Numbered from the stretch's first letter, positions 30,675 through 60,159 are shown. The stretch: DNA of 64,000 nucleotides from Candidatus Gallimonas merdigallinarum (GCA_904390485.1 CAJFLU010000007.1:5009-69008); one strand, 5' to 3'. The notes: generated by a model not told the origin, from the sequence alone. Made by a program: numbers and translations.

Positions 30675-30679
30675 GCGGC

Positions 30680-33888: not shown

Positions 33889-33917
33889 TTTACATCGCCG
33901 CCCCGTTGTGATACAAT
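33889..33917 (+). promoter_or_regulatory. Sigma-A promoter reading toward the interrupted gene
   Basis: TTTACA - 17 nt - TACAAT with upstream TG. Confidence 0.6.
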
Positions 33918-34045
33918 ATAGATGTTCCAAAAGAGGATGAACGCAGGGAGTATGCGCGTAGGCTTGGCGTCAACTACAATATATGCTTATTTTGCGTTCA
34001 AATAGGTGAGCATATGTATACGCTCTATTATTTAAGGAGAAAATT

Positions 34046-34105
34046 ATGACGGAAAACGAAAGAATGAAGCCCGTGCGGACGGTGATCAGCATGACGGAGT
34101 CAGAG
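34046..34105 (+). pseudogene. 5' fragment (20 codons) of a small gene interrupted by the mobile element
   Basis: AAGGAGA RBS then ATG. MTENERMKPVRTVISMTESE is in frame with 60160-60441 once the element is removed. In the current state the ORF runs into element DNA and stops at 34138. Confidence 0.65.
34091..34105 (+). repeat. attL core (ATGACGGAGTCAGAG)
   Basis: Identical 15-mer at 60145-60159, located at the composition break. Confidence 0.7.
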
Positions 34106-34186
34106 GTTGTATTAAAACGCAATAAATGGCTATTGTAAGGGTTAAAACGGCCTAAAATATACTAAAAAACCCGAGTTTTGACCAAT

Positions 34187-34222
34187 CTACCCTTATCTTC
34201 CCCACAAATTACCCCACAATTG
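34187..34222 (+). repeat. Arm-type repeat block, left (CTACCCTTATCTT-CCCCACAAATT-ACCCCACAATT)
   Basis: Matches the block at 60005-60042 in the same orientation. Confidence 0.6.
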
Positions 34223-34275
34223 AAATTATTATTCTAATTAGGTGGATTACATAATGCAATCCATCTGTCAGATGT

Positions 34276-35502
34276 TTATAGGATAGAAACAGGGCAATAC
34301 CAAGCGTTTTTGTTGTAGGGGATCAGCTCATCATTCATACAGATAATTAAACCTGTCTGTATTTCAAGATTTAGTTTTTCAAGTGTCTTAAAGTTTTTAT
34401 CGGCATCGGAAGGGTTCTTACTTTTTTTGATTTCGATCGGATAAGCCTTATTTCCTTTCAAAATCAGAAGGTCGATTTCTTTCTTATCGATATCGCGGTA
34501 GTAATACATATCAACGTGTTTTCCTGCATTATAGTAGCTTTTTATCAGTTCGGAAACGACATAGGTTTCAAAGTATGCGCCCGCCATGTTGCCGTTTTCA
34601 AGCGTATCTGCATTCGGCCAACGGCAGAGATATGCCGCAAGTCCCGTATCCATAAAATATACTTTCGGTGTTTTTACAAGGCGGTTTGTAACGTTGTTAA
34701 AATAGGGGTGAAGAATGTAAATGACACCGGAACGTTCCAAAATGCTTACCCAATTTTTCACGGTAGGGGCGGAAACGCCGATTTCTTTGGAAATTTCGTC
34801 GTATTTCAATTCCTGTGCCGTGCGCGCTGCCATATAGACGAGAAAGGAATAAAACTCGTTCAGTTTTCCCACTTGCGCCAAGTCCTTGATATCTCGTTCG
34901 AGATAGGTGTTCACGTAGTCCATATAATAACGATCACGTTCTATGTCGGATACGTGCAATTTCGGCATACCTCCACGGAAAATCAAATCGAATATTTCGT
35001 GGATATTTTTGTGCTTCATTATTGTCGCACGTTCTTTTAACGCATTGATTTCGGGGCAGAACAGCCCGACTTCCCGCCCATCGAGTTCCGCTTGGGAAAG
35101 CCCTGCTAAATCAAATACGGCAACTCTGCCCGCAAGCGACTCTGAAACGTTCTGCATCATGCGAAATTTCTGAGAACCGGTCAGCCAGAACATTCCGTTA
35201 TTGTCTTCGCCGTCGAGAGCCTTTTGATCCACGATACGCTTCATTTCTAACAAAATGGATGGAACGCGTTGAAACTCGTCAATCAAAAGAGGAGTGCCGT
35301 ATGTTTCGAAGAAAAGCGCGGGGTCTGTTTCGGCAAGCCGACGAGCGTTCATATCGTCAAGCGTTACATATTTACGCCCGGTTTCTTTGATATGGTTGAG
35401 CATTGTGGACTTCCCAACTTGCCGTTGTCCGCAGACCATAACGACGGGATAATTTTTTGAAGCGAGCTTCACTTGCTCTTCCAGATGTCGACGAATATAC
35501 AT
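34276..35502 (-). CDS. AAA+ ATPase (AAA_14 + DUF4143-type)
   Basis: Start moved to MYIRRHLEEQV. Walker A GQRQVGKST, LLIDEFQ Walker B-like, C-terminal DUF4143-like region. Confidence 0.7.
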   Translation of the reverse strand: MYIRRHLEEQVKLASKNYPVVMVCGQRQVGKSTMLNHIKETGRKYVTLDDMNARRLAETDPALFFETYGTPLLIDEFQRVPSILLEMKRIVDQKALDGEDNNGMFWLTGSQKFRMMQNVSESLAGRVAVFDLAGLSQAELDGREVGLFCPEINALKERATIMKHKNIHEIFDLIFRGGMPKLHVSDIERDRYYMDYVNTYLERDIKDLAQVGKLNEFYSFLVYMAARTAQELKYDEISKEIGVSAPTVKNWVSILERSGVIYILHPYFNNVTNRLVKTPKVYFMDTGLAAYLCRWPNADTLENGNMAGAYFETYVVSELIKSYYNAGKHVDMYYYRDIDKKEIDLLILKGNKAYPIEIKKSKNPSDADKNFKTLEKLNLEIQTGLIICMNDELIPYNKNAWYCPVSIL

Positions 35503-35698
35503 AAAATCACCATTCCGAGAAAAATAAAGTGTAACTTTATTATACTCAAAACAAAGTGGTTTGTCAAATAAAAAATGTAACATCGAAAATAAATATTTTT
35601 TAAGGATACCGTTCTCGAAAGGGAACGGCATTTTTTTATTTATAATTGTAATGAGCTTTTCAAAACTTGGATTATATTTACCTTTTTTTCAAAAACTA

Positions 35699-35727
35699 TT
35701 GGCAATGATTTAATTGTATTTTATAAT
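35699..35727 (+). promoter_or_regulatory. Sigma-A promoter of the AraC-family gene
   Basis: TTGGCA - 17 nt - TATAAT. Confidence 0.6.
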
Positions 35728-35755
35728 ACGGGTAGCGATCGAGCCCGAAAATCGT

Positions 35756-35793
35756 GCGGGATATATCCCGCATTCGGTATGCAATACCGAATG
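35756..35793. promoter_or_regulatory. Two abutting perfect palindromes in the AraC leader
   Basis: GCGGGATA|TATCCCGC (16 bp) and CATTCGGTAT-gca-ATACCGAATG (10-bp arms). Confidence 0.55.
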
Positions 35794-35818
35794 AAACTTC
35801 TTAACGAGGGAGGAAGCA

Positions 35819-36694
35819 GTGAATAAGTTGATATTCGATTTTAATGACAGCAAGTGCGAATTGGAAGTTTCACGGGTCGGGCAGGAGTATTGCCTGCCCC
35901 GAAAGTTGCATGAAAAACGGAAGGCGAGAAAGTACTCTTTGCACTGCATTTTTTACGGCTACGGCACGTTGATTAAAAACGGGAAAGAAATCAGCTTGAC
36001 GAAAGGCAATATGTTTTTGCTTTACGAAAACGAGGAACAAGAATACTTTCCCGATCCGATGGCACCTTGGGCTTATTATTGGATTGATTTCATCGGCGAA
36101 GGCGTGGAAAAAGTGCTTGCCGCTTGCGGGTTTTCAAGAGAAAAACCCTATATTTATTTAGGTGATAATGCCAATAATATATACAATCTTTTTCGGTCGC
36201 TTGCGGAAGAGTACGACGGCAGCTCATTGAATTCGCTCAGTTGTATGGGGTATACGCTCTTATTGTTTCAGAACCTGATCCAATATTGTAATCAATATGA
36301 AAAAAGGTTTACCGTAAAATCGGCGCGGTTCAAAGTCTTTCGGGATATTCTCATCTTTATCAATAATAATTACCGCATGAATTTTACGCTCGACGAAATC
36401 GCTGAAAAAATGAACGTTACCAAAAAGCAGCTTATTACGATGTTTAACGATTTTGCGGACATGACTCCCGTCAATTATATCAACCGTTTCCGCATATCCA
36501 CTGCGTGCGTGATACTGTCGGAATCTTCTGTAGGGATCAAAGCCGTTTCCCAAATGGTGGGGATCGAAGATGAAGCATATTTTACGAGAATGTTTACGAA
36601 ATGGAAGGGGATGAGTCCGCGCGAATATCAAAAGGCGCAGGTTTGCGAAGATCCCTATCAATGGTTAAAGGAAAAAAATCTTGATTTCTGTTGA
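35819..36694 (+). CDS. AraC-family transcriptional regulator (cupin sensor + HTH_18)
   Basis: GTG start after GAGGGAGG. C-terminal FTLDEIAEKMNVTKKQL ... YFTRMFTKWKGMSPREY. Confidence 0.85.
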   Translation: MNKLIFDFNDSKCELEVSRVGQEYCLPRKLHEKRKARKYSLHCIFYGYGTLIKNGKEISLTKGNMFLLYENEEQEYFPDPMAPWAYYWIDFIGEGVEKVLAACGFSREKPYIYLGDNANNIYNLFRSLAEEYDGSSLNSLSCMGYTLLLFQNLIQYCNQYEKRFTVKSARFKVFRDILIFINNNYRMNFTLDEIAEKMNVTKKQLITMFNDFADMTPVNYINRFRISTACVILSESSVGIKAVSQMVGIEDEAYFTRMFTKWKGMSPREYQKAQVCEDPYQWLKEKNLDFC

Positions 36695-36739
36695 GGCGGC
36701 TCGGCGGAATTCGGGAAATAAATATGTTAAGGAGAAGTT

Positions 36740-38524
36740 ATGAAGAAGTCAATGAAGCTTGCGGCGGTCGCGCTTGGTGCGTGCATGCTGCTGCCGTTCG
36801 CGGCGTGCGGAGACGACGTTCCGGAGGGTTCGACGGAAATTTCGTTCTGGTACGACACGACGATGTCGCAAAACAGGTATTACGAGGAGCTTGCCCGCAC
36901 CTACAACGAGGGGCAAGGGAAAATCGACGGCGTTTATGTCCGTCCCGAGCTGACGGGCGGAATCAGTAAAGGGGCGCGTCCCTATCTTACCAAGGATTCC
37001 CCCAACGTCATGACGATCGACGAGACGGTGTTCAAGGATTTTGCAATCGACGGATTGTATACCGATTTAACGGAATATTACGAAAACGACAAAGCGTTCT
37101 ACAACGAAAACGACGTTCCCGCAGGGCTTGCGAACCGCAACCGTTTCACGCGCAATACGGGCGGCGTTTCATATGCGGGCGAAGGACAGCAGCTCGTGGG
37201 ACTTCCGTTCGGCGCGACGCCGTACGTCGTGCTTTATAATAAAAAAGCGTTCAGCGATTATAAAATCAATATCGTTTCCTGCGAGGAGAAAAAGCTGAAA
37301 ACGCAGTATCCTTCTTTACAGCCGCACGGCTATGCGGAATACCTCAATTCGCCCTTCGAGGGGGCGGAAGCCTCAACCAATCTTGCGGGAGAGACGGTGT
37401 ACAAGGTGTTTAACAACCGCATTCCCATGAACTGGGAGGAAATGCGCTATCTTTCAAAATGCTTCACCAAGACGAAGGATAACGGCAGCGGCGGCACGGT
37501 CGGTTATAATCCTTCCTCGCCCACGGCGTACGGGTACGTCACCGAGTGGTGGTTCAACTACGCCTGGACGGTCGGCGGCGACTGCGTGGGATACAACGGC
37601 GAAAAGTACGAGCTTACGCTCGGCGACAAGACGCCGAACTACCTTGTAACCGCAAAGGACGGCGTGACCGTAAACAACGTTCACTATGCGGCAGGCGAGA
37701 CGTTGCGCTACGAAGATAAAGTAAAGCTCACTTCGAAGGATGGGCTCTACGAATTGCCTTCTACCTATACGGCGATTGCGGAGATCAACCGTTTCCCTAT
37801 ACCGGAAGGTAAATCTTACGACGACGGCGTACCCGGTTACGGCATTTCTTATCCCGATTCTACCGACCGCGTTACGGCGTTTACTTCCGAACTTGTCGCA
37901 ATGGCGACGCTCGGTCCCGTTACGCTTGCCGAGCTTGACAGAAATATGCGCGGCAACTACGATATCGCGCCCTGTCAGCAGTATCGGCTGTATAAGGACG
38001 GAAGCGTCTATTATAACGGGGAAAAGAACTTTAAGAACGAATATCTTAAAGTCATCGGAAAAGACGGCTACACGGGCGAGCTTGCCGTTGTCGGCGACAC
38101 GCCCGTGACGGGAAATATCGCCGCCTGCGCGGAGTCGCCTTCGCTCGTCGTGCCCAAAAATTCCGATCCCGAAAAACACGAGGCGAGCTGGAAGTTTATC
38201 CGCTGGGCGGCAGGTCCCGACGGGCAGAAGATCCTTGCCCAGACGGGCATTGTCCCCAATCAGCAGAGCGTAGCTCTTTCCGACGATTACCTGAAAACGC
38301 GCACCGACATCAACTTATATGCGCGTTCGCTGACCGCGACGATCGCCGATATCGGCGACTGGGCGTATTTCCAGAACGGCGATTGGGTAAAGGGCTGGTC
38401 GGGCGCCTTCAACGACGACGTCCGTTTCGGAAACATGAAATTCGCGGACTTTCTGACCGATAAAAAATCTGCGGCAGAGACGGCGATCAACGGCATGAAG
38501 ATTGTGATAAAGGGAAGATATTAA
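36740..38524 (+). CDS. ABC transporter sugar-binding lipoprotein (family 1 SBP, large variant)
   Basis: Lipobox PFAAC. Followed by two MalF/MalG-type permease genes. Confidence 0.8.
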   Translation: MKKSMKLAAVALGACMLLPFAACGDDVPEGSTEISFWYDTTMSQNRYYEELARTYNEGQGKIDGVYVRPELTGGISKGARPYLTKDSPNVMTIDETVFKDFAIDGLYTDLTEYYENDKAFYNENDVPAGLANRNRFTRNTGGVSYAGEGQQLVGLPFGATPYVVLYNKKAFSDYKINIVSCEEKKLKTQYPSLQPHGYAEYLNSPFEGAEASTNLAGETVYKVFNNRIPMNWEEMRYLSKCFTKTKDNGSGGTVGYNPSSPTAYGYVTEWWFNYAWTVGGDCVGYNGEKYELTLGDKTPNYLVTAKDGVTVNNVHYAAGETLRYEDKVKLTSKDGLYELPSTYTAIAEINRFPIPEGKSYDDGVPGYGISYPDSTDRVTAFTSELVAMATLGPVTLAELDRNMRGNYDIAPCQQYRLYKDGSVYYNGEKNFKNEYLKVIGKDGYTGELAVVGDTPVTGNIAACAESPSLVVPKNSDPEKHEASWKFIRWAAGPDGQKILAQTGIVPNQQSVALSDDYLKTRTDINLYARSLTATIADIGDWAYFQNGDWVKGWSGAFNDDVRFGNMKFADFLTDKKSAAETAINGMKIVIKGRY

Positions 38525-39516
38525 TGGAAAAGAGTGAAGAAGGCGTAAAAGCGGCTGCGGCGGAGGAAAAATCCGAAGCCAAAAAGCCGCTGCGCAAAAA
38601 GACAAAGTGGACGAAGGAAAGCGTCGTCGGTCTCGTGATTCTTTTGATCCCGCTCGTCGGCTATCTGATTTTCAGCGGCTTTCCCGTTGTCATTTCCTTC
38701 ATCATTCAGTTCGCCGATATGGATCGTTTCGATCTCGGAACGCTCAAATGGAACAATTTTGCGAATTTTTCCGCAGTGTTCACGGACGGGAGATTCTGGC
38801 ATTCGATCGGGATCACCTTCTGGCTGCTTGCGACGCAGATCGTGTCGCTTCTGATCGCGCTGTTGATGGCGGCGCTCCTGTCGCGCGACGTAAAGGGATC
38901 GAAGATATTCCAGATACTTTATTTTGTGCCGTATATTTGTTCGACGATCGCTATTTCCGTCATGTGGATGTGGATTTTCGACGGCAGTCTGCAAGCGGAC
39001 GGCGTTACGCGCGGAGGGGTGCTCAACAGCATTCTCGGCACGAATATCAACTGGCTGGATAATCCGGACAATCCGGGAACGCTCACCTGGGCGATCTTCA
39101 TTTCGATCGTATGGCGCGCGCCCGGATACGGTATCGTCATGTATATCGCGGCGTTCAAGGCGGTCAATCCCGCCCTACACGAGGCGGCTCAGCTCGACGG
39201 AGCAAACGCATTTCAGCGTTTTATCCACGTCACGCTTCCGGGGATTGCTCCCACGACGCTCTATCTTGCTATGGCGGGCGTGACTGCGGGTATGGGGATA
39301 TTCGGCGAAGCGACGATCATGGCGCCGATCAACTGGGATCAGGTTGCGGGAAGGGACGACATGGGACTGACCGCCATGTACTATATCTATCTCGAAGGGG
39401 TGAAGTCGGCGCGCATGCCGACGGCGGCGGTTATGAGTTGGTTTATGTTTATCATTACCTTTATTCCGTCGTTCCTGCTGTTACGCTGGCGGAATAAAAA
39501 GGAGGAAGCGTTATGA
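38524..39516 (+). CDS. Carbohydrate ABC transporter permease (MalF-like)
   Basis: Six TM segments, EAA-loop region HEAAQLDGANAFQRFIHVTLP. Confidence 0.85.
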   Translation: MEKSEEGVKAAAAEEKSEAKKPLRKKTKWTKESVVGLVILLIPLVGYLIFSGFPVVISFIIQFADMDRFDLGTLKWNNFANFSAVFTDGRFWHSIGITFWLLATQIVSLLIALLMAALLSRDVKGSKIFQILYFVPYICSTIAISVMWMWIFDGSLQADGVTRGGVLNSILGTNINWLDNPDNPGTLTWAIFISIVWRAPGYGIVMYIAAFKAVNPALHEAAQLDGANAFQRFIHVTLPGIAPTTLYLAMAGVTAGMGIFGEATIMAPINWDQVAGRDDMGLTAMYYIYLEGVKSARMPTAAVMSWFMFIITFIPSFLLLRWRNKKEEAL

Positions 39517-40403
39517 GAAACGAAAAAACTTCCTCGAAACGCAGAACGAAACTGATTGCCGATATCGTCACTTATATCGGATTGGCAATTTATTTCCTGA
39601 TTCTCGTTTTGCCGTTTATTATCATTATTATCACTTCGTTTGCTTCCGACTACGAGATTTCGCACAGCATCGGATTCGTATGGGCGCCGAAGTTTTCTAC
39701 CGAAGGGTACGAGGTGCTGTTCAAAAACGATCCGTATGCGGTCGGCGGAGTGCCGTCCATCTTGCGCGGATTTTTGAATACGCTTTGGATGACGACCATC
39801 CCTACGGTGGTGGGACTGCTCGTTTCGGGTGCGGCGGCGTATGTTTACGCCAAAGTGAAAGTGCCGGGGAAAAACATTCTGTTTATGATCGAAATCGCGA
39901 CCATGAGTATTCCGCTCGGCGCGTTCGGCATGGTGAGCTATTTGTTCTATTCGGCAATCGGCTGGCAAAAGAGCATTCTGCCGCTATTTATTCCGGGAAT
40001 GTTCGGAAGTGCGGGAACGATTTTCTTTTTGAGAATGTATTTCGAGGGGATCAACAAAGAAATCGTGGAGGCGGCTAAAATCGACGGCGTCGGTACGATC
40101 GGAATTTACTTCCGCATGATGATCCCGCTTTCGATTCCCGCGTTTTTAGCGCAATTCATCTTTGCGTTTGTGGGCGGCTACAACGATTATCAGGGACCGC
40201 TATTATATCTCGTCGGCAATAAATCTATGTGGACGTTGCAGCTTTCCATGTCGCAGATCGTTTCGTTCGTCGGTTCGGAGGGCGGTTACAAAAACGTGCA
40301 GTGCGCTTCTGCGCTCGTCGGGCTTCTTCCCATGCTCCTGCTGTATTGCTTCGTGCAGAAGTTCTTCATTGCGGGAATCGCGGTAGGCGGCGGAAAAGAA
40401 TAA
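39513..40403 (+). CDS. Carbohydrate ABC transporter permease (MalG-like)
   Basis: EAA-loop VEAAKIDGVGTIGIYFRMMIP. 4-nt overlap with the upstream permease gene. Confidence 0.85.
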   Translation: MRNEKTSSKRRTKLIADIVTYIGLAIYFLILVLPFIIIIITSFASDYEISHSIGFVWAPKFSTEGYEVLFKNDPYAVGGVPSILRGFLNTLWMTTIPTVVGLLVSGAAAYVYAKVKVPGKNILFMIEIATMSIPLGAFGMVSYLFYSAIGWQKSILPLFIPGMFGSAGTIFFLRMYFEGINKEIVEAAKIDGVGTIGIYFRMMIPLSIPAFLAQFIFAFVGGYNDYQGPLLYLVGNKSMWTLQLSMSQIVSFVGSEGGYKNVQCASALVGLLPMLLLYCFVQKFFIAGIAVGGGKE

Positions 40404-40419
40404 AAACAAGGAGAAAACT

Positions 40420-42285
40420 ATGAGGAAAATAACAAAAACAGTTTGTATCGCGCTCACGGGCTGTCTTGCCGCGGCGGCGCTTGCGGGCTGCGGGTCGGAA
40501 ACAAAAACCGTGCTCGAACTGCCATATTACGACGGCACGGAATACACGAGCGAGCTTCACGACGTTCCCGAATACAACCGCGAGCTGTGGCGTTCCAACG
40601 TAAATGCAGCGCGCATCATGGAGCTTGCCGATCCGCAGGTTTTCGACAATACCTCGCGCGACGGATACTACTACATCTATGCGACAAACGATATGACGAC
40701 CTCCCGCACGAAGGACTTTATCGAGTGGGAATTCATGGGCACGATTTTGGAAACGCCGAGCGGTTGGGCAGACCGGTGGGCTCCCGAAGTAATCTACGAC
40801 GAGGAAACGGAAAAGTACTTGTACTTTTTCAGCGCGACCGCGCAATCGGGTGCGTCCTGCGTGTTATATCTTGCAACTTCGGATCGTCCTTACGGGCCAT
40901 TCGAGCTCGTGGACTTTTCGGACGCGGATAGCTGTTTCGGCGCAGAGAACGTGCATACGTACTCCGACAATGATTCGCCGTTGACGAAGGACGATTTTCA
41001 GAACGCTTTCGACAAATACACTTATTTTGATCCCGTCAAATTCGGCGCGGTGTTGAATCAAAAATACGGAACGTCGATTTCGACGACGCATATTCCCACG
41101 ATCGATCCGCACCCGTTTATCGTTCCCGAAACGGACGAGGCGCACGGGGGCGAAAAGTATCTCTACGTTTCGCTTGACGATCCCTATTATTCGGGATTGG
41201 ATCGCGGAATCTTGGCTATTCGATGCGATAACTGGTTCAAGCCCGATTATTCCACGGCAGAGGTGGTAACGCGCGTGGGTTATTCGACGATAGAGGATTA
41301 TAATAGGGCGAAAGCCGGAGAAGAAGTGAAGACGTTATGGTTCGAGCTGGCGGGTACGGCGCTCGTCAACGAGGGACCCGAAGCTTATTATCATAACGGG
41401 AAATATTATCTCACGCTCTCCTATTGCGGATACGGTGATCCCGGATACGGCGTCGTGCAGGCGGTCGGCGATTCGCCGCTCGGACCTTTCCGTAAACTCA
41501 CCGAAGCAGAAAACGGCGTGCTCTTAAGCTACGATGCAGGCGGAAACACTAAGGCTTCGGGAACGGGACACCATTCTTTCTTTGAAATCGGCGACAAGTT
41601 GTATATTGCTTATCACCGCCATTCGGTATACGGTACGACGGACGGCGGAAGAGAGCTTGCCTTAGACGAGATAAAATGGTTGAAAACCGAGGATATCGAC
41701 GGAAACGAGATCGAGGTCATGTACGTGAACGGACCGACCGTGACCGTACAACCCAGATTCGATAACGAAGCGGAATACAAAAACATTGCAGAGCAGGGAA
41801 CGGTAAAGCTGGAAAAGGGCAAGTTTGCTAACGGCTCTTCCGCCGAGTATATGAATGACGGATTGCTTTCGATGAATACTGTCGTCAATCAGGACTTTGT
41901 AAACGCACACGTGAAGGAAACGCAGATTACTCAAACGAGCACGTTCTCTATCACGTTCAACGAACTGAAAACCGTGCGCGGATTTATGGTTTACGACTCT
42001 AAGCTGAAAGAAGAAGTATTCCGTAAGATCAAGAATATCGAATTTATCGGCGAGGAGAACGGACAGGAAATCACTTATTACATTGCCGAATTAAACCTCG
42101 ACGAGCGCTCGAATATCGTCATCAGCAGTTTCGACGGTTCGGTGCGCAACACGGTACGCGGCGGCGGAGTGTATGCGGAATTCGATGCAATCAAGGTAAA
42201 GCAGATCAAATTCACGGTGGAAGTGCCCGAAAATCAAACGCAGGTCGGCATTGCCGAGATCGCCGTGCTCGGCAAGGTGCAATAA
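40420..42285 (+). CDS. Lipoprotein glycoside hydrolase family 43 with C-terminal discoidin/CBM32-like module
   Basis: Lipobox LAGC. GH43 blocks ADPQVF, WAPEVIYD, IDPHPF, NEGPEAYYHNGKYYL. C-terminal F5/8-type-C-like 150 aa. Confidence 0.8.
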   Translation: MRKITKTVCIALTGCLAAAALAGCGSETKTVLELPYYDGTEYTSELHDVPEYNRELWRSNVNAARIMELADPQVFDNTSRDGYYYIYATNDMTTSRTKDFIEWEFMGTILETPSGWADRWAPEVIYDEETEKYLYFFSATAQSGASCVLYLATSDRPYGPFELVDFSDADSCFGAENVHTYSDNDSPLTKDDFQNAFDKYTYFDPVKFGAVLNQKYGTSISTTHIPTIDPHPFIVPETDEAHGGEKYLYVSLDDPYYSGLDRGILAIRCDNWFKPDYSTAEVVTRVGYSTIEDYNRAKAGEEVKTLWFELAGTALVNEGPEAYYHNGKYYLTLSYCGYGDPGYGVVQAVGDSPLGPFRKLTEAENGVLLSYDAGGNTKASGTGHHSFFEIGDKLYIAYHRHSVYGTTDGGRELALDEIKWLKTEDIDGNEIEVMYVNGPTVTVQPRFDNEAEYKNIAEQGTVKLEKGKFANGSSAEYMNDGLLSMNTVVNQDFVNAHVKETQITQTSTFSITFNELKTVRGFMVYDSKLKEEVFRKIKNIEFIGEENGQEITYYIAELNLDERSNIVISSFDGSVRNTVRGGGVYAEFDAIKVKQIKFTVEVPENQTQVGIAEIAVLGKVQ

Positions 42286-42297
42286 GGAGGGAAGAAG

Positions 42298-43326: not shown

Positions 43327-43369
43327 ACAGGAAGCGTCAATCGAAGATTGATAGAAATAAGGAGGAATT

Positions 43370-46609: not shown

Positions 46610-46630
46610 GCCGATATACAGGCGCAGGCA

Positions 46631-46662
46631 CTCCCGCCGTTAAAACGGCGGGAGCAAATTTT
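46631..46662 (+). terminator. Intrinsic terminator inside the cargo locus
   Basis: CTCCCGCCGT-TAAA-ACGGCGGGAG then CAAATTTT. Confidence 0.65.
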
Positions 46663-46674
46663 AAGAGGTTTGCT

Positions 46675-48120: not shown

Positions 48121-48129
48121 GGGGCATTT

Positions 48130-49536: not shown

Positions 49537-49543
49537 AAATAAT

Positions 49544-51055: not shown

Positions 51056-51083
51056 GCGGTCTTTATTACGGAAGGAGATAAAA

Positions 51084-53036: not shown

Positions 53037-53037
53037 T

Positions 53038-55194
53038 ATGATCAAAGCAAACGGAAAAACCTTTTTATTGCAGGGAAAAAATTACAGCTATGCGATGCAC
53101 GTGCTGGAATCGGGCTTTTTACAGCACTTGTATTACGGCGGAAAAATTACGGAAACCGATTTGGATTATTTAATCGAAATCGGCGATACCAATGCGCCGC
53201 ATATCGATATGAACATGGACATGGCGTTCGATAGAATGCTCTCCGAATACGGTTTTTACGCGCGCGGCGATTACAGGGAAGCGACCGCCGTCTTTGAGCG
53301 GAAAGACGGGGCAAGTATGTCGCGTCTGCGCTATCAAAGCTACCGTGTGGAAAAGGGCGCGCCGAACGTAAAGGGTATGCCGCACGTGCGCCAAGGGGAC
53401 GAGACGCTTGTCATTACCCTCAAAGACGATTTTTCCGATATCTCGGTGGATTTGTATTACACCGTTTGCGACAATTCGGACGTGCTTGTCCGCAGCTCGG
53501 TCATTCGCAACACGGGGCGCGAGTCGATCATGCTTAAAAAAGCGTTCTCCTTCCGCGCGCAGCTGCCAAACGGCAATTACCGCATGATGCGTCTTGCCGG
53601 CACTTGGGGACAGGAGCGCATTCCCGAAATTGCGCCTATCGCGCACGGAATTACCCGCTTGCAATCCATTCAAGGTTGTACTTCCCATAACACGAATTGT
53701 TTTATGGGCATTCTCAAAGAGGGCTGCACGGAGGATTCGGGCGAGTGCCTCGGCATACAGCTTATATACAGCGGCTCGTTTGCCTTAACGGCAGAGTGGT
53801 GCAAAAACGGTCCGCTCACGTTGCAGGGCGGCATCTGCGATACGGGCTTTTCATGGGAGCTGAACGGCGGAGAAGAATTCGTTACGCCGCAGGTCTTGCT
53901 CACCTATTCGGGCGAAGGAATCGGGGGCATGTCGCGGAGCATCCACGACTTTTTGCGCGAGCGCGTAATCAACCCCGCATACGTCTATAAGCGTCGCCCG
54001 ATCGTGGTGAATAACTGGGAGGCAACTTATTTCGATTTTAACGAAGAAAAGCTTTTCCCGATCATCGACGAAGCGGGAAAGCTCGGGATCGATACGTTTG
54101 TATTGGACGACGGCTGGTTCGGAAAACGCGACAGCGACTGGTCGGGACTTGGCGATTGGTTCGTGAACGAGAAAAAGCTGAAAGGCGGGTTAAAAACGAT
54201 TATCGACCGCTGTAAGAAGAACGGCTTAAAATTCGGCTTGTGGTTTGAGCCGGAGATGGTGAACGAGGACAGTGATTTATTCCGCACGCACCCTGATTGG
54301 GCGATCCATAAAGACGGGGTAGAGCCTTGCAGAAGCCGTCAACAGCTTGTATTGGATTTCACGCGCAAAGATGTAGTAGACTATATTTTCGGCGTCGTTT
54401 CCAAGGTGCTCAAAGAGAACGAAATTTCCTACGTGAAATGGGATATGAACCGCAATATTACCGAGGTGTATTCGGCTCAGCTTCCTGCGCACCGTCAGGG
54501 TGAGTTTATGCACCGCTATATTTTAGGCGTGTATGATTTGGCAGAGCGGCTGACTTCCGCATTCCCGAACGTATTTTTCGAAGGCTGTGCAGGCGGAGGC
54601 GGAAGATTCGACGCGGGTATGCTCTATTACTTTTCTCAGATTTGGACGAGCGACGACACCGACGGATTCGAGCGTACAAAGATCGAGTGGGGGACTTCTG
54701 TTTGCTATCCGCTGTCCGCCATGAGCTGTCACGTTTCCGTCTGCCCCAATCACCAAACGCAGAGAATCACTCCCTTTGAAACGCGCGGGAACGTAGCGAG
54801 CCTCGGCGCGTTCGGGTACGAGCTCGATCTTTCCAAGATGACGGAAGAGGAAAAGGCGCTCACCAAAGCGCAGATAGAAAGCTACAAGCGCACGAGTGAG
54901 CTGATTTTGAAAGGTGACTTGTACCGCTTGATGAATCCGCTTGAAAAGAACTATTTCTGTGTTATGGTCGTCAGCAAGGATAAGAGCGAGGCTTACGTTG
55001 TGGGAGAACGTATTCTGGGAATTCCATGCGACTATAATCAATACCTCTATCTGTGCGGCTTAGATGAGAACGCGCTCTACAAAATTGAGGAGCTGAACAT
55101 TACGGCAAGCGGTAAAGCGCTTCAAAACGCGGGCTTGCTTTTGCCGAAGCTTTCCGATTTCGGCAGTTGGGCGTGGCATCTGAAAAAAGTATAA
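53038..55194 (+). CDS. Glycoside hydrolase family 36 alpha-galactosidase
   Basis: NNWEATYFDF, FVLDDGWFGKRD, YVKWDMNR, CAGGGGRFD, WTSDDTD. Confidence 0.9.
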   Translation: MIKANGKTFLLQGKNYSYAMHVLESGFLQHLYYGGKITETDLDYLIEIGDTNAPHIDMNMDMAFDRMLSEYGFYARGDYREATAVFERKDGASMSRLRYQSYRVEKGAPNVKGMPHVRQGDETLVITLKDDFSDISVDLYYTVCDNSDVLVRSSVIRNTGRESIMLKKAFSFRAQLPNGNYRMMRLAGTWGQERIPEIAPIAHGITRLQSIQGCTSHNTNCFMGILKEGCTEDSGECLGIQLIYSGSFALTAEWCKNGPLTLQGGICDTGFSWELNGGEEFVTPQVLLTYSGEGIGGMSRSIHDFLRERVINPAYVYKRRPIVVNNWEATYFDFNEEKLFPIIDEAGKLGIDTFVLDDGWFGKRDSDWSGLGDWFVNEKKLKGGLKTIIDRCKKNGLKFGLWFEPEMVNEDSDLFRTHPDWAIHKDGVEPCRSRQQLVLDFTRKDVVDYIFGVVSKVLKENEISYVKWDMNRNITEVYSAQLPAHRQGEFMHRYILGVYDLAERLTSAFPNVFFEGCAGGGGRFDAGMLYYFSQIWTSDDTDGFERTKIEWGTSVCYPLSAMSCHVSVCPNHQTQRITPFETRGNVASLGAFGYELDLSKMTEEEKALTKAQIESYKRTSELILKGDLYRLMNPLEKNYFCVMVVSKDKSEAYVVGERILGIPCDYNQYLYLCGLDENALYKIEELNITASGKALQNAGLLLPKLSDFGSWAWHLKKV

Positions 55195-55206
55195 ACGGAG
55201 AGTTAT

Positions 55207-56940
55207 ATGAAAAAAACAGAATATCCGCGTCCTCAATTTCAAAGAGAAGAGTGGTTGTCCCTCAACGGCGAATGGGAGTTTGCCTACGACGATTCCGACG
55301 AGGGAATTAAAAACGGGTATGATACGGGAACGGTTTTACTCCCCCTTAAAATTAACGTTCCGTTTACCTATCAGTACGAAGCAAGCGGTATCGGTGATAC
55401 CGCTTGCCACGAACGTGTATGGTACAGAAGAACATTCAAAGTAAAGCCCAATAAACGTGTATTATTGTGCTTTAACGGCAGCGATTATATTACCGACGTA
55501 TGGGTGAACGGTAAACACGCTACAACGCACACGGGTGGGTTTGCGCCCTTTTCTTGCGATATAACCGATTATCTAAATGGGGAAGAAAACGTCCTCGTCG
55601 TACGGTGCTACGATAGTTTGGAAACAGCTGTTCCGCGCGGAAAGCAGAGCTGGAAGGCCGAACCGTTCGGTTGTTACTATGTGCCCAATACGGGTATCTG
55701 GCAGAGTGTTTGGCTGGACTTCTTCGGCACGGATTGTGTGGAAAGCTATACCTTACAATCAGATATAGACAATCGAGCAATCAGGGGTGAAATTCATACG
55801 CTGTACGGAAAGGCAGACGAGGCGGAAATCACTCTTTCTTTTCAAGGGAAGCTTTTACAAAAGCAGCGCATTGTGTTGCCGCAGAAACGCACAAGGTTTG
55901 CAATCGAGCTTGCAGACTGCGCATTCGATTTTAACGACATGCTTTGGTCGCCCGAAAAGCCAAATTTGATTTACGTGGATGTGGTGCTTTATGCAAACGG
56001 TGTGGAGTGCGACAAGGCGCATACCCGACTTGGAATGCGCAAAATTCATATCGACAAAGCGGGAAAAATCTGTCTGAATAACCGTCCGTATTTTCAACGG
56101 CTCATTCTTGATCAGGGCTATTGGGTGGAGAGCGGCTTAACACCGCCAAGTGCCGAGGCGCTCAAAAAGGATATTGAGCTTGCCAAAGCAATGGGATTTA
56201 ACGGCGCGCGAAAGCATCAGAAACTTGAAGATCCGTATTTTTACTATTATGCGGAAGAGCTAGGCTTCCTCACTTGGTGCGAAATGCCGAGCGCGTATAC
56301 GTTCTGCGTGGAAGAGGTCGCGGCAATTACAAACGAGTGGCAGGAGATTATCAAAGTTGCCAAAAATTTTACGAGCAATATTGTCTACGTTCCGCTCAAC
56401 GAAAGCTGGGGTGTGCGTGAGATCGGCGTAAACAAAGAGCAACAAGAGTTCGCGCGCAGTTTGTATCATTTAACCAAGTGTTTAGATTGCGAAAAGCTCA
56501 TTTCCACGAACGACGGATTCGAGAACGTCAATCCGACGGATATTGTTTCCATTCACGATTACGACATTGCCAAGGCGGAGCAGTTCCCCATAAAGTACAA
56601 AGCGGGGGATTATAACGGACTCTGTCCGCAGGGTTGGAAATTATTCGCCGAGGGCAATTCTTACGAGGGACAGCCCGTACTGTTCACAGAGTTTGGAGGC
56701 ATGATGCTCAAAGAACAAGGCGTCGAAGGCTGGGGCTATAACGGCTGTGAAGAGAATGCAGAATCCTTTTGCAAGCACCTCGAAGAGCTTGTTAAGGGCA
56801 TTGCACAAACGGAGTTTCAGGGCTTTTGTTATACGCAGTTGACCGACGTACAGCAAGAGGTGAACGGGCTTTTGCGTGCCGATCATACGCCAAAGTTTGA
56901 TTTGGCGAAGATAAAGAATTTAACAGAAAAAATCATATAA
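55207..56940 (+). CDS. Glycoside hydrolase family 2 enzyme (specificity not assignable)
   Basis: YPRPQFQREEWLSLNGEWEF, VWVNGKHATTHTGGFAPF, NGARKHQK, acid/base PLNESWG, ~577 aa short GH2 form. Confidence 0.8.
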   Translation: MKKTEYPRPQFQREEWLSLNGEWEFAYDDSDEGIKNGYDTGTVLLPLKINVPFTYQYEASGIGDTACHERVWYRRTFKVKPNKRVLLCFNGSDYITDVWVNGKHATTHTGGFAPFSCDITDYLNGEENVLVVRCYDSLETAVPRGKQSWKAEPFGCYYVPNTGIWQSVWLDFFGTDCVESYTLQSDIDNRAIRGEIHTLYGKADEAEITLSFQGKLLQKQRIVLPQKRTRFAIELADCAFDFNDMLWSPEKPNLIYVDVVLYANGVECDKAHTRLGMRKIHIDKAGKICLNNRPYFQRLILDQGYWVESGLTPPSAEALKKDIELAKAMGFNGARKHQKLEDPYFYYYAEELGFLTWCEMPSAYTFCVEEVAAITNEWQEIIKVAKNFTSNIVYVPLNESWGVREIGVNKEQQEFARSLYHLTKCLDCEKLISTNDGFENVNPTDIVSIHDYDIAKAEQFPIKYKAGDYNGLCPQGWKLFAEGNSYEGQPVLFTEFGGMMLKEQGVEGWGYNGCEENAESFCKHLEELVKGIAQTEFQGFCYTQLTDVQQEVNGLLRADHTPKFDLAKIKNLTEKII

Positions 56941-57007
56941 ATAATTTTTTTGAATCTATTGAATGGTTAACCACCATAGAGCAAATAAATAGTTGCTAAA
57001 TAAGGTT

Positions 57008-57044
57008 AAAGTCGGTGATACGAGAATTTATCAGCGACTTTTTT
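57008..57044 (+). terminator. Intrinsic terminator after the GH2 gene
   Basis: AAAGTCG ... CGACTTT stem with inner TGAT/ATCA pairs, followed by a T-run. Confidence 0.55.
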
Positions 57045-57177
57045 ATGCTCTTTTTTCGGTGTCTTTCGCTTTATTGAGAGTGAAAGAGAATACAATTTGG
57101 AGGTTAAAACAATGACAATTAGACCGCCTTAATCGGCAGACAAGTGGAAAACAAAAGCCCCCTGCAAGGGCGAACGG

Positions 57178-57228
57178 GATACAAAAGCGAAGCGTTGTAT
57201 CTTAGTGAGATAAGGTTACAAAGTAACC
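57178..57228 (+). promoter_or_regulatory. Candidate oriT region (two inverted repeats)
   Basis: GATACAA-10 nt-TTGTATC (57178-57201) and GGTTAC-aaa-GTAACC (57214-57228), 27-77 nt upstream of the relaxase gene. Confidence 0.4.
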
Positions 57229-57254
57229 GACATTAAAAAAAGGAGAAAACAGTT

Positions 57255-58484
57255 ATAAGTTATCAAGTTATACGAGTGCAAAAATTTACAAAGGGATCGT
57301 TAGGTAAAATAGGTGGAGAATCCGAACGGACAAGCAACGGACACCGCAACGAAGATATTGACAGCGAGAGAACGCCGCTCAATTACTATTTTAAAAAATC
57401 AGACGGCGGGTTTACATCCACATGGAAAAGTATTTTGAATGAGCTGAATGCTACGTTCAAGGAAACGAAGAAGTCGACGGCGTTTGAAGGGATTATAGTA
57501 ACCTCGGATAAGGCATTTTTTCAGCGGCTTGGTTACGTTGCGGGAGACGAGCCGCCACCCGAGGTGATGAGATTTTTTAATCGGGCTTACAATTTCATAT
57601 TGCGAGAAATCGGGTATCACGGCACAGATCAAAACATTATCTCTGCCGTGATTCATTTTGACGAAACCACGCCGCATTTACAGCTTTATTATCTGCCTAT
57701 CATTGATAAGGGCAAGAAGAAAGTTTATGCCAAAGGCGTGGACGGGAAAGTTTTGCGGAACGAGAAGGGTTCACCGATACAAGCAAAGGATGAACACGGG
57801 AGAGCAATCTATGAATTGAATGAATTGGAACAACCCAAAGTGTGTTCGTCAGATTTTTGGGAACAACGAGGCGGGCAGTTATCGTTCGGTAATTTACAGG
57901 ACGCATTCTATGATGAGGTCAGTATTCGATACGGATTGGAACGCGGCGAAGTCGGCAGCAATAAAAAACATACCACGAAGTATGAGTGGCAGAAGCAACA
58001 ACAGGAAGCCGAGCTTGCGAAAATAGAAGCGCGGGCAGCAATCCGTGAAGATCAGGCGAGCTTTGCTACCGCTATGCGGGACAGGGCGATGAATGAGCTG
58101 AATGAGATTAATGAGCGGAAAGAAATAGCAAGTGAGGAACTCAAACCGTTACAGAAGTATTTAGACGCATTCAAAGAGGCGTTGAAGGGTGATTTGCCAC
58201 TTTCACCTACGAAGTTACGGAAAATGATAGTAGGGCTGACAACCGAATATAAGCGGCTTGAAAGCGAAAAGAAAATTACCGACAGGGACAGAAAAAATCT
58301 TTTTGAGGAATTGCAGAAAGTAGAAAAACGTATTCCCGAATTGGAAAAGTATAAGGCCTTCGTTTCCCTTTTAGTCGATTATGCGCCCGATAAATTAGAG
58401 GAAGCGAAACGAGCGGCGAACGAGAGAAGGAATACACCAAAACCGCCAATCAAAATAAAGACAAGCGGCAATTATAAATTATAA
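57255..58484 (+). CDS. MobV-family (Pre/Mob) relaxase, possibly degenerate
   Basis: HFDETTPHL motif III region and coiled-coil C-terminus. The conserved N-terminus ISYQVIRVQKFTKGSLG starts at an ATA codon 9 nt after AGGAG. The first canonical start is GTG at 57276. Confidence 0.7.
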   Translation: MSYQVIRVQKFTKGSLGKIGGESERTSNGHRNEDIDSERTPLNYYFKKSDGGFTSTWKSILNELNATFKETKKSTAFEGIIVTSDKAFFQRLGYVAGDEPPPEVMRFFNRAYNFILREIGYHGTDQNIISAVIHFDETTPHLQLYYLPIIDKGKKKVYAKGVDGKVLRNEKGSPIQAKDEHGRAIYELNELEQPKVCSSDFWEQRGGQLSFGNLQDAFYDEVSIRYGLERGEVGSNKKHTTKYEWQKQQQEAELAKIEARAAIREDQASFATAMRDRAMNELNEINERKEIASEELKPLQKYLDAFKEALKGDLPLSPTKLRKMIVGLTTEYKRLESEKKITDRDRKNLFEELQKVEKRIPELEKYKAFVSLLVDYAPDKLEEAKRAANERRNTPKPPIKIKTSGNYKL

Positions 58485-58693
58485 AAATTTATAGTGCAAA
58501 TTGCTTGCAATTTGCAGAAAAATAAGGTAGGATACAAACCCAGTCGGGAATGTATCTCTCATACAACTTAATACAAAATGACAACTGAATAATTGAAAAA
58601 TTATAAGGAGAAGTTTTGTGAATATGGTAAGAGAACATAGTAGCCATTTAGCGAGAGAACATTGTAGCTACACAAATAACAATGTAAGGAGAT

Positions 58694-59989
58694 TTGAAAC
58701 AACAAGAACTAATTGAAATTTTAACGCAACTCAACACTCTTGATTTGAAGGGCGAACAGAAAACTGAAATGACAGCGAAAGTATTGCAGATGGCGGCAGA
58801 TTCCGTTACTCTCGAAACGCTGAAATCGTTACTCGTATCCGACAAATCAAAACAGACGGCAACACCCGTATTCGAGGAAGCCGTCAGACCTTTGGGAAGA
58901 AAGTCAAAACTCGGGTTTACTTTAACGAAAAAGGAGATAAAAAGTATGCCCGAAAAACACAGAAAAATATTTGCCTGTGAAAACAGGATCATTCCGTATC
59001 GCTTTCATAAGGGCGTGTACGAAGCACATTACCGCAGAGACGGTTTCAAAGTATTCGCTTGCGCAAAAGACTTTAACCAAATGCGCAAGAAGTTCGCAGA
59101 AAAGCTGTTAGCGCAGATGAACGGAGAAATGCCTGTAGTTATTATTGAGAAGGCAAAGCCGTATCGCGCCGCGTTATTCCGCGATTATCTGAACGAGTGG
59201 CTTGAAATCAAGCGTAAAACCTGTAAGCCTTCTACTTGCAAGGAATACGAGCGATTATGTAGTTACAATTTAATACCTGCGTTCGGAGAAAAGCGTTTAG
59301 ACGAATTAACTCGTCCTGTACTTCAAAAGTATTTGTTTGATTTGGTAGAAGAAGGGAAACACCGTACAGCGGAGAAATTACAGCAAATCCTGTGTTGCGT
59401 CTTTGATTTAGCAGTGGAAGATTTGAATATCGTTTCCCCGATGAAGAAGATCGTATTGCCGTATCACGAAGCGAAGAAGGGTTCCGCACTTACGAAAGAG
59501 GAAGAACGACAACTTGTAGATTGGTGTATTGCTCACAAGGATAACGAAGCGGCTTCCGCATTGCTTGTGTTGCTCTACTTCGGTTTACGTCGTTCCGAGC
59601 TGATAACCTTAGAGGTTGAAAACGAAATGCTTTCTTGTACCACGAGTAAGGAACGAATGGGGCGAAATGAAGTTAAAAGGAGTATTCCTTTCACGCCCGT
59701 GTTCAAGCGAGTATTGCCATACGTAGACTTTGAGAAGGCAAAGAATACTAATGTGAACACGATTTACACGACCTTCAAGCGGCTATTCCCGAAACGCCAC
59801 ACGCATGAACTAAGGTACAATTTTATTACGAGAGCCAAAGAATCGGGTTGCAATTTGGAAGCGGTTATGCTCTGGGCAGGACATTCTTTCGATAAAGACG
59901 TAAAGAGTTCCGCCGTTGACAGAGGCTATACAGACTACTCCAATGAATACTTGATTCAAGAGGCTCAAAAAATTGACTATCCGTTATAA
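58694..59989 (+). CDS. int: Tyrosine recombinase / integrase
   Basis: SAM-like N-domain, then GLRRSEL (Arg), HELRYNF (H-x-x-R), AGHS, RGYTDY (Tyr). The exact start is uncertain: TTG at 58694 lies very close to the RBS, and ATGs follow at 58769 and 58790. Confidence 0.85.
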   Translation: MKQQELIEILTQLNTLDLKGEQKTEMTAKVLQMAADSVTLETLKSLLVSDKSKQTATPVFEEAVRPLGRKSKLGFTLTKKEIKSMPEKHRKIFACENRIIPYRFHKGVYEAHYRRDGFKVFACAKDFNQMRKKFAEKLLAQMNGEMPVVIIEKAKPYRAALFRDYLNEWLEIKRKTCKPSTCKEYERLCSYNLIPAFGEKRLDELTRPVLQKYLFDLVEEGKHRTAEKLQQILCCVFDLAVEDLNIVSPMKKIVLPYHEAKKGSALTKEEERQLVDWCIAHKDNEAASALLVLLYFGLRRSELITLEVENEMLSCTTSKERMGRNEVKRSIPFTPVFKRVLPYVDFEKAKNTNVNTIYTTFKRLFPKRHTHELRYNFITRAKESGCNLEAVMLWAGHSFDKDVKSSAVDRGYTDYSNEYLIQEAQKIDYPL

Positions 59990-60004
59990 TTAGGATACAT
60001 AAAA

Positions 60005-60042
60005 CTACCCCACATTTTCCCCACAATTTACCCCACAATTTT
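60005..60042 (+). repeat. Arm-type repeat block, right (CTACCCCACATTTT-CCCCACAATTT-ACCCCACAATTTT)
   Basis: Three direct CCCCACAWTT units. Matches 34187-34222. Confidence 0.6.
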
Positions 60043-60074
60043 GAAGTGAGTAGAGGAAAAAGGACAGCAAAAAA

Positions 60075-60108
60075 GGCGATTTTTAGCCTAAAAACGCTAA
60101 AAATCGCC
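60075..60108 (-). terminator. Intrinsic terminator positioned just after the tRNA-like 3' end (minus strand)
   Basis: GGCGATTTTTA-12 nt-TAAAAATCGCC. On the minus strand it is followed by T6 (60069-60074). Confidence 0.6.
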
Positions 60109-60114
60109 CTAAAC

Positions 60115-60159
60115 TGGCTGGGGTAGCTGGATTCGAACCAACGAATGACGGAGTCAGAG
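60115..60159 (-). other. 3' half of tRNA-Gln(CUG) including encoded CCA. Not an intact tRNA.
   Basis: Minus strand reads CTCTGAC (anticodon loop, CUG) TCCGT CATTC GTTGG TTCGAAT CCAGC TACCCCA G CCA. It parallels E. coli tRNA-Gln ...CAUUCCGAGGUUCGAAUCCUCGUACCCCAGCCA (from memory). No 5' half follows. Confidence 0.7.
60145..60159 (+). repeat. attR core (ATGACGGAGTCAGAG)
   Basis: Identical to 34091-34105. Corresponds to the anticodon loop, 3' anticodon stem and part of the variable loop of the tRNA-Gln fragment. Confidence 0.7.

Follow-up and report, generated by a model that had tools for sequence, protein, structure and literature searches.

A glycan-utilization island of the tRNA-Gln(CUG)-targeting kind, very probably at a secondary site inside a host gene of Candidatus Gallimonas merdigallinarum

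How does an island of some 26 kb come to lie inside a small protein-coding gene? The question is raised by a 64,000-nucleotide stretch of Candidatus Gallimonas merdigallinarum DNA (GCA_904390485.1, CAJFLU010000007.1:5009-69008; hereafter the window, with positions counted from its first letter), in which an earlier note, made from the sequence alone, had placed an integrative mobilizable element (IME) within such a gene. That proposal is supported by empty sites in related strains, by the Pfam content of the interval, and by sister copies in other hosts. Taken jointly, the data very probably describe an IME that normally targets tRNA-Gln and that here occupies a secondary site inside a host gene.

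The interrupted gene and its empty alleles

The interval is bordered by two copies of the 15-mer ATGACGGAGTCAGAG, at 34091-34105 (attL core) and 60145-60159 (attR core), both on the plus strand; exact search confirms the repeat and finds these two copies only in the window. Positions 34106-60144 together with one 15-bp core make up an IME of 26,054 bp. Its G+C content of 0.485 falls short of that of the host flanks (0.60 on the left, 0.64 on the right), which upholds the compositional break that had been proposed at both junctions; the single-line counts given at the time (22/60 at 59281-59340 and 37/60 at 21001-21060) are exact. Within the element, G+C is 0.40-0.42 at the backbone ends and 0.50 in the cargo. 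As the earlier note itself had said, a 15-mer match could arise by chance: about 18 further, unrelated repeats in direct orientation and 15-20 nt long are present in the window, where approximately 1.9 pairs are expected under uniform composition. We rejected the 15-mer as statistical evidence for this reason, and the case therefore has to rest on comparison with other sequences, which provides strong evidence.

Removal of 34106-60159 joins 34046-34105 to 60160-60441 in a single 113-codon frame, as had been claimed, the start of which reads MTENERMKPVRTVISMTESEFSLLAQ / MTENERMKPVRTVISMTESEFSLLAQLVFLGNY. The 5′ fragment (34046-34105, plus strand) encodes codons 1-20, ends in the 15 nt of the attL core, and shares its N-terminus with full-length homologs. 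The 3′ fragment (60145-60441, plus strand) is still opened by an in-frame ATG from the core, and gene finders consequently call a 98-aa product. A consensus scan of the upstream region places a promoter-like site at 33889-33917 on the plus strand (TTTACA, a 17-nt spacer, and a TG-extended TACAAT), which agrees with 10 of 12 consensus positions in addition to the TG extension and matches the near-consensus promoter described before. Because the gene body is cut off from this promoter, from its ribosome-binding site, and from its first 15 codons, the host gene is probably inactivated, and no ribosome-binding site is evident before the core ATG of the 3′ fragment. Neither the interrupted gene (even at E = 0.1) nor its homologs (in precomputed annotation) have a Pfam match.

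The restored 113-aa protein, used as a query, retrieves full-length homologs at 93% identity and 100% coverage in more than 100 contigs, and one uninterrupted variant alone is on record in 107 contigs. Their N-terminus is MTENERMKPVRTVIS; homologs of the 60145-60441 product thus do carry the N-terminal sequence whose consistent absence had been named as grounds for abandoning the proposal. The empty site that was to be sought in relatives also exists. Two loci (L001 and L002) are collinear with window positions 24381-34108 and 60145-64000 at about 98% identity by BLAST, the two aligned blocks overlap by the core only, and nothing stands between the gene halves. Both loci have the same gene neighbors as the window, an HTH regulator upstream and a MatE transporter downstream, and both contain the promoter-like site. 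With precise empty sites in these strains, the other way in which the earlier note had said its proposal could fail, relatives that show the interval as ancestral, syntenic DNA, does not apply either. The occupied state is common as well: the exact 98-aa product is on record in 44 blocks, and its neighbors there are in every case the same relaxase and integrase. The element accordingly presents itself as a discrete unit: a 26,054-bp insertion, polymorphic among close strains, with intact integrase and relaxase frames.

The related records are metagenome assemblies, and the junctions might be the product of an assembly artefact in which the island and a host contig were fused into a chimera through the common 15-mer. 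We consider this extremely unlikely. The same right junction occurs in at least 22 contigs from many samples and assemblers (including L056-L060 and L065), assemblers work with k-mers much longer than 15 nt (k141, for example), and both junctions fit a single reciprocal recombination event.

Upstream of the interrupted gene, the host intergenic region contains two TACAATATA motifs (33910-33922 and 33978-33990), which recur in the empty-site loci; several other family members have a comparable motif, ACAATATATAG, next to the tRNA-like arm described below. These motifs may be a coincidence, may serve as a promoter or operator for the divergent HTH regulator, or may be linked to site choice.

The usual target and the secondary site

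The tRNA-like arm that had been noticed at the right end of the element can be specified further: it is the 3′ half of tRNA-Gln(CUG) and marks the usual integration target. Read from 60159 to 60115 on the minus strand, it consists of the CUG anticodon loop (CTCTGAC), the 3′ strand of the anticodon stem (TCCGT), the variable loop (CATTC), the T arm (GTTGG, TTCGAAT, CCAGC), the 3′ strand of the acceptor (TACCCCA), the discriminator (G), and CCA. Its first 15 nt are the attR core, which corresponds to tRNA nucleotides 31-45. The arm as a whole (60115-60159) is identical to nucleotides 31-75 of the tRNA-Gln(ctg) genes called by ARAGORN in two other loci (L064 and L067) and near-identical to that in a third (L003). 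ARAGORN detects no whole tRNA gene in the window, and a scan of the window at Rfam gathering thresholds is also empty; a complete tRNA or other RNA family was rejected on these grounds, the arm being half a tRNA.

A scan of GTDB genomes for the integrase returned 43 loci in metagenome-assembled genomes (MAGs) of Christensenellaceae and other Clostridia, with a best match of 96%. In 23 of these loci, ARAGORN places a tRNA-Gln(ctg) gene downstream of the integrase match and on the other strand, no more than about 650 bp away and, in 22 of the 23, at approximately 100-290 bp; the remaining 20 are mostly truncated contigs or tandem arrays. In the tRNA-linked loci, the same 15-mer leads into TCCGTTGCCTTACCGCTTGGCGACACCCCA, which represents the 5′ half of the tRNA, and at several loci other elements have accreted in tandem at tRNA-Gln.

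Independent copies in other hosts, which the earlier note had suggested looking for, were found in L003, L064, L067, and L046-L055. In the Christensenellaceae MAG locus L003, an 11.3-kb match to window positions 48685-60002 (94.9%) gives way to tRNA-Gln(ctg). In L064 and L067 the relaxase and the arm are both identical to those of the window, and the arm is joined to a whole tRNA-Gln(ctg). At the opposite end, the left terminus (GTTGTATTAAAACG...) is preceded by the tRNA-Gln 3′ half and the core in L046-L048, L050-L053, L055, and L062. Six of these loci (L046-L048, L050, L053, and L055) match the window from 34091 to 45.6 kb at 93-98% over about 11.5 kb. L048 and L066 belong to a single contig, along which the element extends for approximately 26 kb. 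The hosts of the element range from about 41% to 64% G+C.

As this comparison shows, the target of the integrase family is the anticodon-loop region of tRNA-Gln(CUG). The element carries the segment that extends from the anticodon loop to the 3′ end, as is expected of an anticodon-centered attP, and because it brings the 3′ half of tRNA-Gln with it, integration at the usual target rebuilds the tRNA gene. The sister copies display the corresponding products: the regenerated tRNA in L003, L064, and L067, and the displaced 3′ fragment in the loci just listed for the left terminus. Around the window copy both are absent, ARAGORN calling no tRNA and the host sides being protein-coding.

A large-serine-recombinase element interrupts the tRNA-like arm of the IME just after ...TGGCTG at about position 6845 of L066 and about position 440 of L040 (equivalent to window position 60120). 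The acceptor end of tRNA-Gln, or the copy of it that the IME carries, may therefore be the target of another type of element.

Since the normal target is tRNA-Gln(CUG), insertion in a host protein gene constitutes, as judged by sequence comparison, an off-target, secondary-site event. The host sides of both junctions are protein-coding sequence and not tRNA, and the recombined site corresponds to codons 16-20 of the 113-codon gene. The core of the empty-site DNA is ATGACGGCGGCAGAG; it agrees with the element at 13 of 15 positions, having C instead of A at position 8 and G instead of T at position 10. Both window junctions carry the element bases (A at 34098 and T at 34100; likewise at 60152 and 60154). 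The uninterrupted protein variants, at least 18 in number, all begin MTAAEF or MTAEEF, and none begins MTESEF. The pre-insertion site probably matched the element at 13 of 15 positions, and the perfect 15-bp repeat was probably made in part by the recombination itself, which would have changed the host codons from Ala-Ala to Glu-Ser. By our own arithmetic, about five 13/15 matches are expected by chance in a 3-Mb genome (991 of 4^15 sequences x 6e6 positions).

In the mechanism that we propose, the integrase would have recombined attP with a pseudo-attB, a chance mimic of the anticodon loop in the host gene. Strands would be exchanged in the part of the 15-mer that is complementary to the anticodon loop (positions 8-14 or thereabouts), and the two mismatched bases would then lie between the staggered cuts and form a heteroduplex. 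Mismatch repair or replication would have resolved this heteroduplex to the element version in both junctions, thereby making the repeat perfect and rewriting Ala-Ala as Glu-Ser.

The same two bases bear on whether the element could instead be ancestral at the host gene, with the apparently empty sites arising later through precise deletion or excision. Presence and absence of the element both occur among close strains, and precise excision is what integrases do. Excision from the window copy, however, would leave ATGACGGAGTCAGAG, because both junctions have A and T, whereas every empty allele has C and G, and the exact restored protein with Glu-Ser is not on record. The difference in composition from the host (G+C of 0.485 versus 0.60-0.64), the occurrence of the same element at tRNA-Gln in unrelated hosts, and the uninterrupted state of host-protein homologs at about 60% identity all argue in the same direction. 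We regard an ancestral element as highly improbable and retain insertion at a secondary site.

Two further insertions bear on where the crossover lies. In a related strain, a different element is inserted at exactly the same host codon (L061; ERZ28614069 scaffold_18167, 900-975). The flank there is 95% identical to the window, the C-terminal fragment of the integrase is only 26% identical to that of the window element, the tRNA-Gln-like arm is of another sequence type, and attR keeps the host-type core ATGACGGCGGCAGAG. The window's own element also occupies a second secondary site, in another protein-coding gene, in L049 and L054 (at about 11520-11545), where the left junction has only AGTCAGAG in common with the core. 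The empty version of that site, at 5730-5760 of L040, reads ...CAACTGACTTTTCGC... in tRNA-strand orientation, from which it follows that pre-insertion identity to the core was just AGTCAG. Both L061 and the second pseudo-site fit a predicted crossover around core positions 8-14. The gene at the second site lies in what looks like another mobile element.

That two different elements, with such dissimilar integrase C-termini, sit at exactly the same position, and that the occupied state of the host gene is as common as the 44 blocks indicate, could mean that this gene is a genuine second primary target, recognized by dual-specific integrases and maintained in sequence as an attachment site. We find this improbable. 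The resemblance of the host-gene site to the tRNA half is confined to the 15-nt core, at 13 of 15 positions, and does not extend to the other 30 nt, and some five matches of this quality are expected by chance in each 3-Mb genome. The integrase relatives are at tRNA-Gln in 23 of 43 loci, the others being for the most part truncated contigs or tandem arrays; the same element is also found at the unrelated pseudo-site with its 6-nt identity; and the more distant homologs of the host protein, which read LTREKC, have not kept the site sequence. Use of the host gene as a secondary site by an integrase directed at tRNA-Gln remains the reading that we prefer.

A broader proposition is tentative, and we lean against it at present: the tRNA-Gln integrase family and an unrelated integrase with the same target may both recombine at sites that differ inside the crossover, overwriting host codons as they do so. 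Were this true, these integrases would join the few homology-tolerant tyrosine recombinases of the CTnDOT and NBU1 type, and it would explain how a 26-kb glycan island reaches hosts of about 41% to 64% G+C, including lineages in which the tRNA site is unavailable.

Backbone, cargo, and predicted mobility of the element

Pfam confirms the integrase, the Mob_Pre relaxase, the AAA ATPase, and the catabolic cargo that had been named as components of the interval. The tyrosine integrase (431 aa; 58694-59989, plus strand; Phage_int_SAM_3, Phage_int_M, and Phage_integrase) lies beside the right end and is of the heterobivalent type. Its residues R299, K319, H371, R374, H397, and Y412 are present; all are invariant among 18 relatives except R374, which is found in 17 of the 18. 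A motif search identified candidate arm-type integrase-binding sites on the plus strand in both arms, namely TTCCCCACAAA and TACCCCACAAT on the left (34198-34220) and TACCCCACATT, TTCCCCACAAT, and TACCCCACAAT on the right (60006-60039). The TACCCCACAAT-like repeats start at 34198, 34210, 60006, 60017, and 60029, all on the plus strand, and the four matches to TACCCCACAAT with at most one mismatch in the 64 kb all fall within about 140 bp of the element ends. Matching arm repeats had been reported at both ends and are indeed present, in a layout that fits arm-type integrase-binding sites. A perfect 10-nt palindrome pair, TGCAAATTGC-GC-GCAATTTGCA (58495-58516), is located between the relaxase stop and the integrase start and could be an operator or terminator that controls integrase expression.

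The Mob_Pre relaxase, probably of the MobV family, is encoded at 57252-58484 on the plus strand (Pfam Mob_Pre 1.6e-24, above the cut-off). Its first canonical start is a GTG at 57276 (frame 57276-58484), a codon that is GTA in L003, and the N-terminal sequence SYQVIRVQK is encoded upstream of this GTG, where it is read only with an ATT or ATA start. The conservation of SYQVIRVQK implies that translation would begin at 57252 or 57255 with an ATT or ATA codon, downstream of an AAGGAG at 57240-57245. All copies of the relaxase gene, at 91-100% identity, keep this AAGGAG and the ATT-ATA that follows it, which points to such a non-canonical start. We take SYQVIRVQK to be MobM-like, motif I of MOBV relaxases being presumably SYxVxRxQK-like and accompanied by a histidine-rich motif; HFDETTPHLQLY occurs in the sequence. 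Across public assemblies, the exact 402-aa relaxase product is present in 511 blocks. Inverted repeats upstream of the gene (57008-57095, plus strand; for example 57008-57020/57029-57041), which a repeat search recovered as the earlier note had described them, mark a candidate origin of transfer (oriT) region. The left backbone end is formed by an AAA_14/DUF4143 ATPase of 451 aa (34276-35631, minus strand; Pfam 4e-47 and 7e-23), the exact protein being present in 237 blocks of the public collection.

Between the ATPase and relaxase genes lies the cargo of about 21 kb, with all of its genes on the plus strand. It opens with an AraC-family regulator (35819-36694; HTH_18 and AraC_binding), followed by an ATP-binding cassette (ABC) sugar importer (36740-40403; SBP_bac_8 and BPD_transp_1) that consists of a solute-binding protein (36740-38524) and two permeases (38524-39516 and 39513-40403), with no ATPase subunit in this set of genes. 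A glycoside hydrolase of family GH43 (40420-42285; Glyco_hydro_43, 1e-28) precedes two large proteins of 342 and 1079 aa with a divergent InlB B-repeat (Flg_new_2) domain in Pfam (42298-46609), which have no NCBIfam match and are probably surface-associated or secreted. A SASA-type carbohydrate esterase (46675-48120), a GDSL esterase (48130-49536), both assigned by Pfam, and a 503-aa protein without a Pfam family match (49544-51055) come next, and then a GH42 β-galactosidase (51084-53036; Pfam 5e-95), a GH36 α-galactosidase (53038-55194; Pfam 4e-152), and a GH2 family enzyme (55207-56940; Pfam 4e-15), for which the GH2-type matches in NCBIfam are below the cut-off. An NCBIfam scan of the cargo gave only such sub-threshold GH2-type matches and Xer-type ones. 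In its gene content the cargo looks like a Gram-positive glycan-utilization locus, and it would give the host the uptake and breakdown of galactose- and arabinose-containing glycans. The genes for the two esterases have a near-identical 5′ module of about 500 nt in common (46674-47172 and 48129-48627, with exact blocks of up to 71 nt), which suggests recent duplication or domain shuffling within the cargo.

As regards element class, the interval encodes its own 431-aa tyrosine integrase, is bounded by the 15-bp direct repeat, corresponds to precise empty sites in L001/L002, and has a Mob_Pre relaxase without a complete conjugation module, as is characteristic of IMEs. Pfam and NCBIfam scans of all open reading frames of at least 290 aa in the interval, with smaller frames inspected near the right end, revealed no conjugation-pore, coupling, replication, or phage structural proteins. 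The interval therefore lacks, among those frames, the type IV secretion and coupling-protein domains of an integrative and conjugative element, and by Pfam (PHROGs was not searched) the capsid, terminase, portal, and phage-regulatory genes of a prophage or phage satellite. With a relaxase and neither a coupling protein nor type IV secretion genes, transfer would need a co-resident conjugative element: the relaxase would nick oriT within about 56990-57110, and the element would then be mobilized through the mating pore of its partner.

Several observations weigh against an active tRNA-Gln-targeting IME inserted in the way we propose. The presence of the element version in both junctions needs mismatch repair or a second integration cycle and is not the simplest outcome; the recipient may instead have carried a pre-existing Glu-Ser allele, in which case the site was a 15/15 match. 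The host's own tRNA-Gln(CUG) gene was not seen. The relaxase has no canonical start codon at its conserved N-terminus, and the oriT region is a candidate. The circular attP junction, which the earlier note had proposed to look for as the 60145 region joined to the 34106 region, gave 0 matches in JGI metagenome contigs when searched as an exact 70-nt pattern with 2 degenerate positions in that one collection; a second JGI scan with the left end as query gave one match, L062, in the natural tRNA context. The exact restored 113-aa Glu-Ser protein is absent from a collection of 15 billion proteins, in a look-up that is sensitive to any polymorphism; no excision product of this lineage has been sampled, so that the copy may be immobile here. 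Finally, the stretch that separates the relaxase gene from the integrase gene offers no plausible small plus-strand frame for an excisionase (recombination directionality factor); small frames left of the ATPase gene were not checked.

Several of these observations would also be expected of a decayed, immobile remnant, a catabolic island fixed in its lineage and no longer an active IME. Neither a circular form, nor an excision footprint, nor a recognizable excisionase was found, and the core arms on the host side are not tRNA-like here, which may hinder excision. Other copies show decay: in L068 and L071 (5306-6343), an IS1595-family transposase gene stands in the place of the integrase beside an identical relaxase, and the integrase of L063 is truncated at the equivalent of window position 59838. 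In the window copy, by contrast, the integrase and relaxase frames are intact and the catalytic residues are conserved, and identical relaxase and ATPase proteins recur in hundreds of assemblies, in varied flanking contexts, a pattern that implies recent spread. We consider a remnant unlikely, though it is the alternative to which we give the most weight, and continue to view the element as an IME.

Outside the element, positions 1801-17500 form a stretch of low G+C (0.37-0.49) in a host of 0.60-0.65. It encodes GT4/GT1 and GT2 glycosyltransferases, RmlA-, RmlB-, and RmlD-like enzymes, a DegT aminotransferase, a FemAB-like protein, and a Wzx-type flippase. We considered this region as a second mobile island and rejected it, since it is a surface-polysaccharide biosynthesis cluster in which no recombinase was seen; it is probably a horizontally exchanged variable glycan locus and not a mobile element.

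Significance and comparison with known elements

In this element a complete sugar-degradation module (the ABC importer, GH43, GH42, GH36, and GH2 enzymes, and esterases) would move as one mobilizable unit among gut Clostridia, which makes it useful for tracing the horizontal spread of dietary-glycan metabolism in Gram-positive gut bacteria. Set side by side, the primary site, the pair of secondary sites, and their empty alleles narrow the probable crossover to the anticodon-loop complement, with host codons probably rewritten. Such an off-target record bears on predicting the off-target behavior of tRNA-targeting integrases when these are used as genome-engineering tools.

CTnDOT IntDOT and NBU1 IntN1 are tyrosine recombinases that tolerate heterology in the overlap region. 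The window junctions are comparable in that they imply recombination between sites that differed at two positions within or next to a presumed 7-bp overlap. The heterology tolerance proposed here is read from junction sequences, and a matching allele in the recipient may instead have given rise to them. NBU1 and NBU2 resemble the present element in their genes: each has a tyrosine integrase, one relaxase, and an oriT (here a candidate region) and lacks genes for a mating pore. Their primary sites lie in tRNA genes (Leu or Ser) with a common core of 13-14 bp, comparable to the tRNA target found here. They differ in their Bacteroides hosts, where ours are Bacillota/Clostridia, in their relaxase, which here is of the Mob_Pre and probably the MobV type, and in their cargo, which here is a 21-kb glycan-utilization locus and not resistance genes. 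IMEs with tyrosine integrases target tRNA genes, and NBU1 and SGI1 use secondary sites, NBU1 especially when its primary site is absent (PMC5704250).

MOBV1 IMEs, some of them at secondary sites, are abundant in gut Clostridia (PMC12084326). Those of the MOBV1 superfamily in Firmicutes (streptococcal and Faecalibacterium elements) combine a MobV relaxase resembling MobM of pMV158 with a tyrosine integrase, as the present element probably does; they are site-specific, form tandem accretions, and are in some cases annotated at secondary sites (PMC5357655, PMC5704250, PMC12084326). Membership of a named MOBV family is defined by at least 40% relaxase identity; the likeness stated here is one of description. 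Neither a tRNA-Gln(CUG) target nor the present cargo is described in the papers cited. SGI1 is likewise a mobilizable island; it has a tyrosine integrase, uses a secondary site in the chromosome, and forms tandem arrays (PMC5704250, citing Doublet et al. 2008), but it belongs to Gammaproteobacteria, has its primary site at the 3′ end of trmE and not in a tRNA gene, and carries resistance cargo.

A parallel in layout is provided by genomic islands with an anticodon-centered attP, a recognized class (PMC4383910); the layout at tRNA-Gln also agrees with what is described for tyrosine-integrase IMEs (PMC5704250). The class A islands of Williams and Islander take with them the part of the tRNA that runs from the anticodon loop to its 3′ end, cross over at the anticodon loop, and have ends marked by a regenerated tRNA and a displaced 3′ fragment (PMC4383910), the arrangement also seen in L003, L064, L067, and L046-L055. 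The window copy departs from it in having no host-side tRNA: 15 nt inside a protein gene take the place of the displaced fragment, and the target gene is consequently not regenerated. A limited literature search found no description of this particular element, which is not proof of novelty. Set beside these systems, the element belongs to a known type, being an IME in a secondary attachment site; it introduces no new principle and leaves the understanding of such elements unchanged. It differs from them in the anticodon-loop target in tRNA-Gln(CUG), the glycan-utilization cargo, and a natural record of two pseudo-sites together with their empty alleles.

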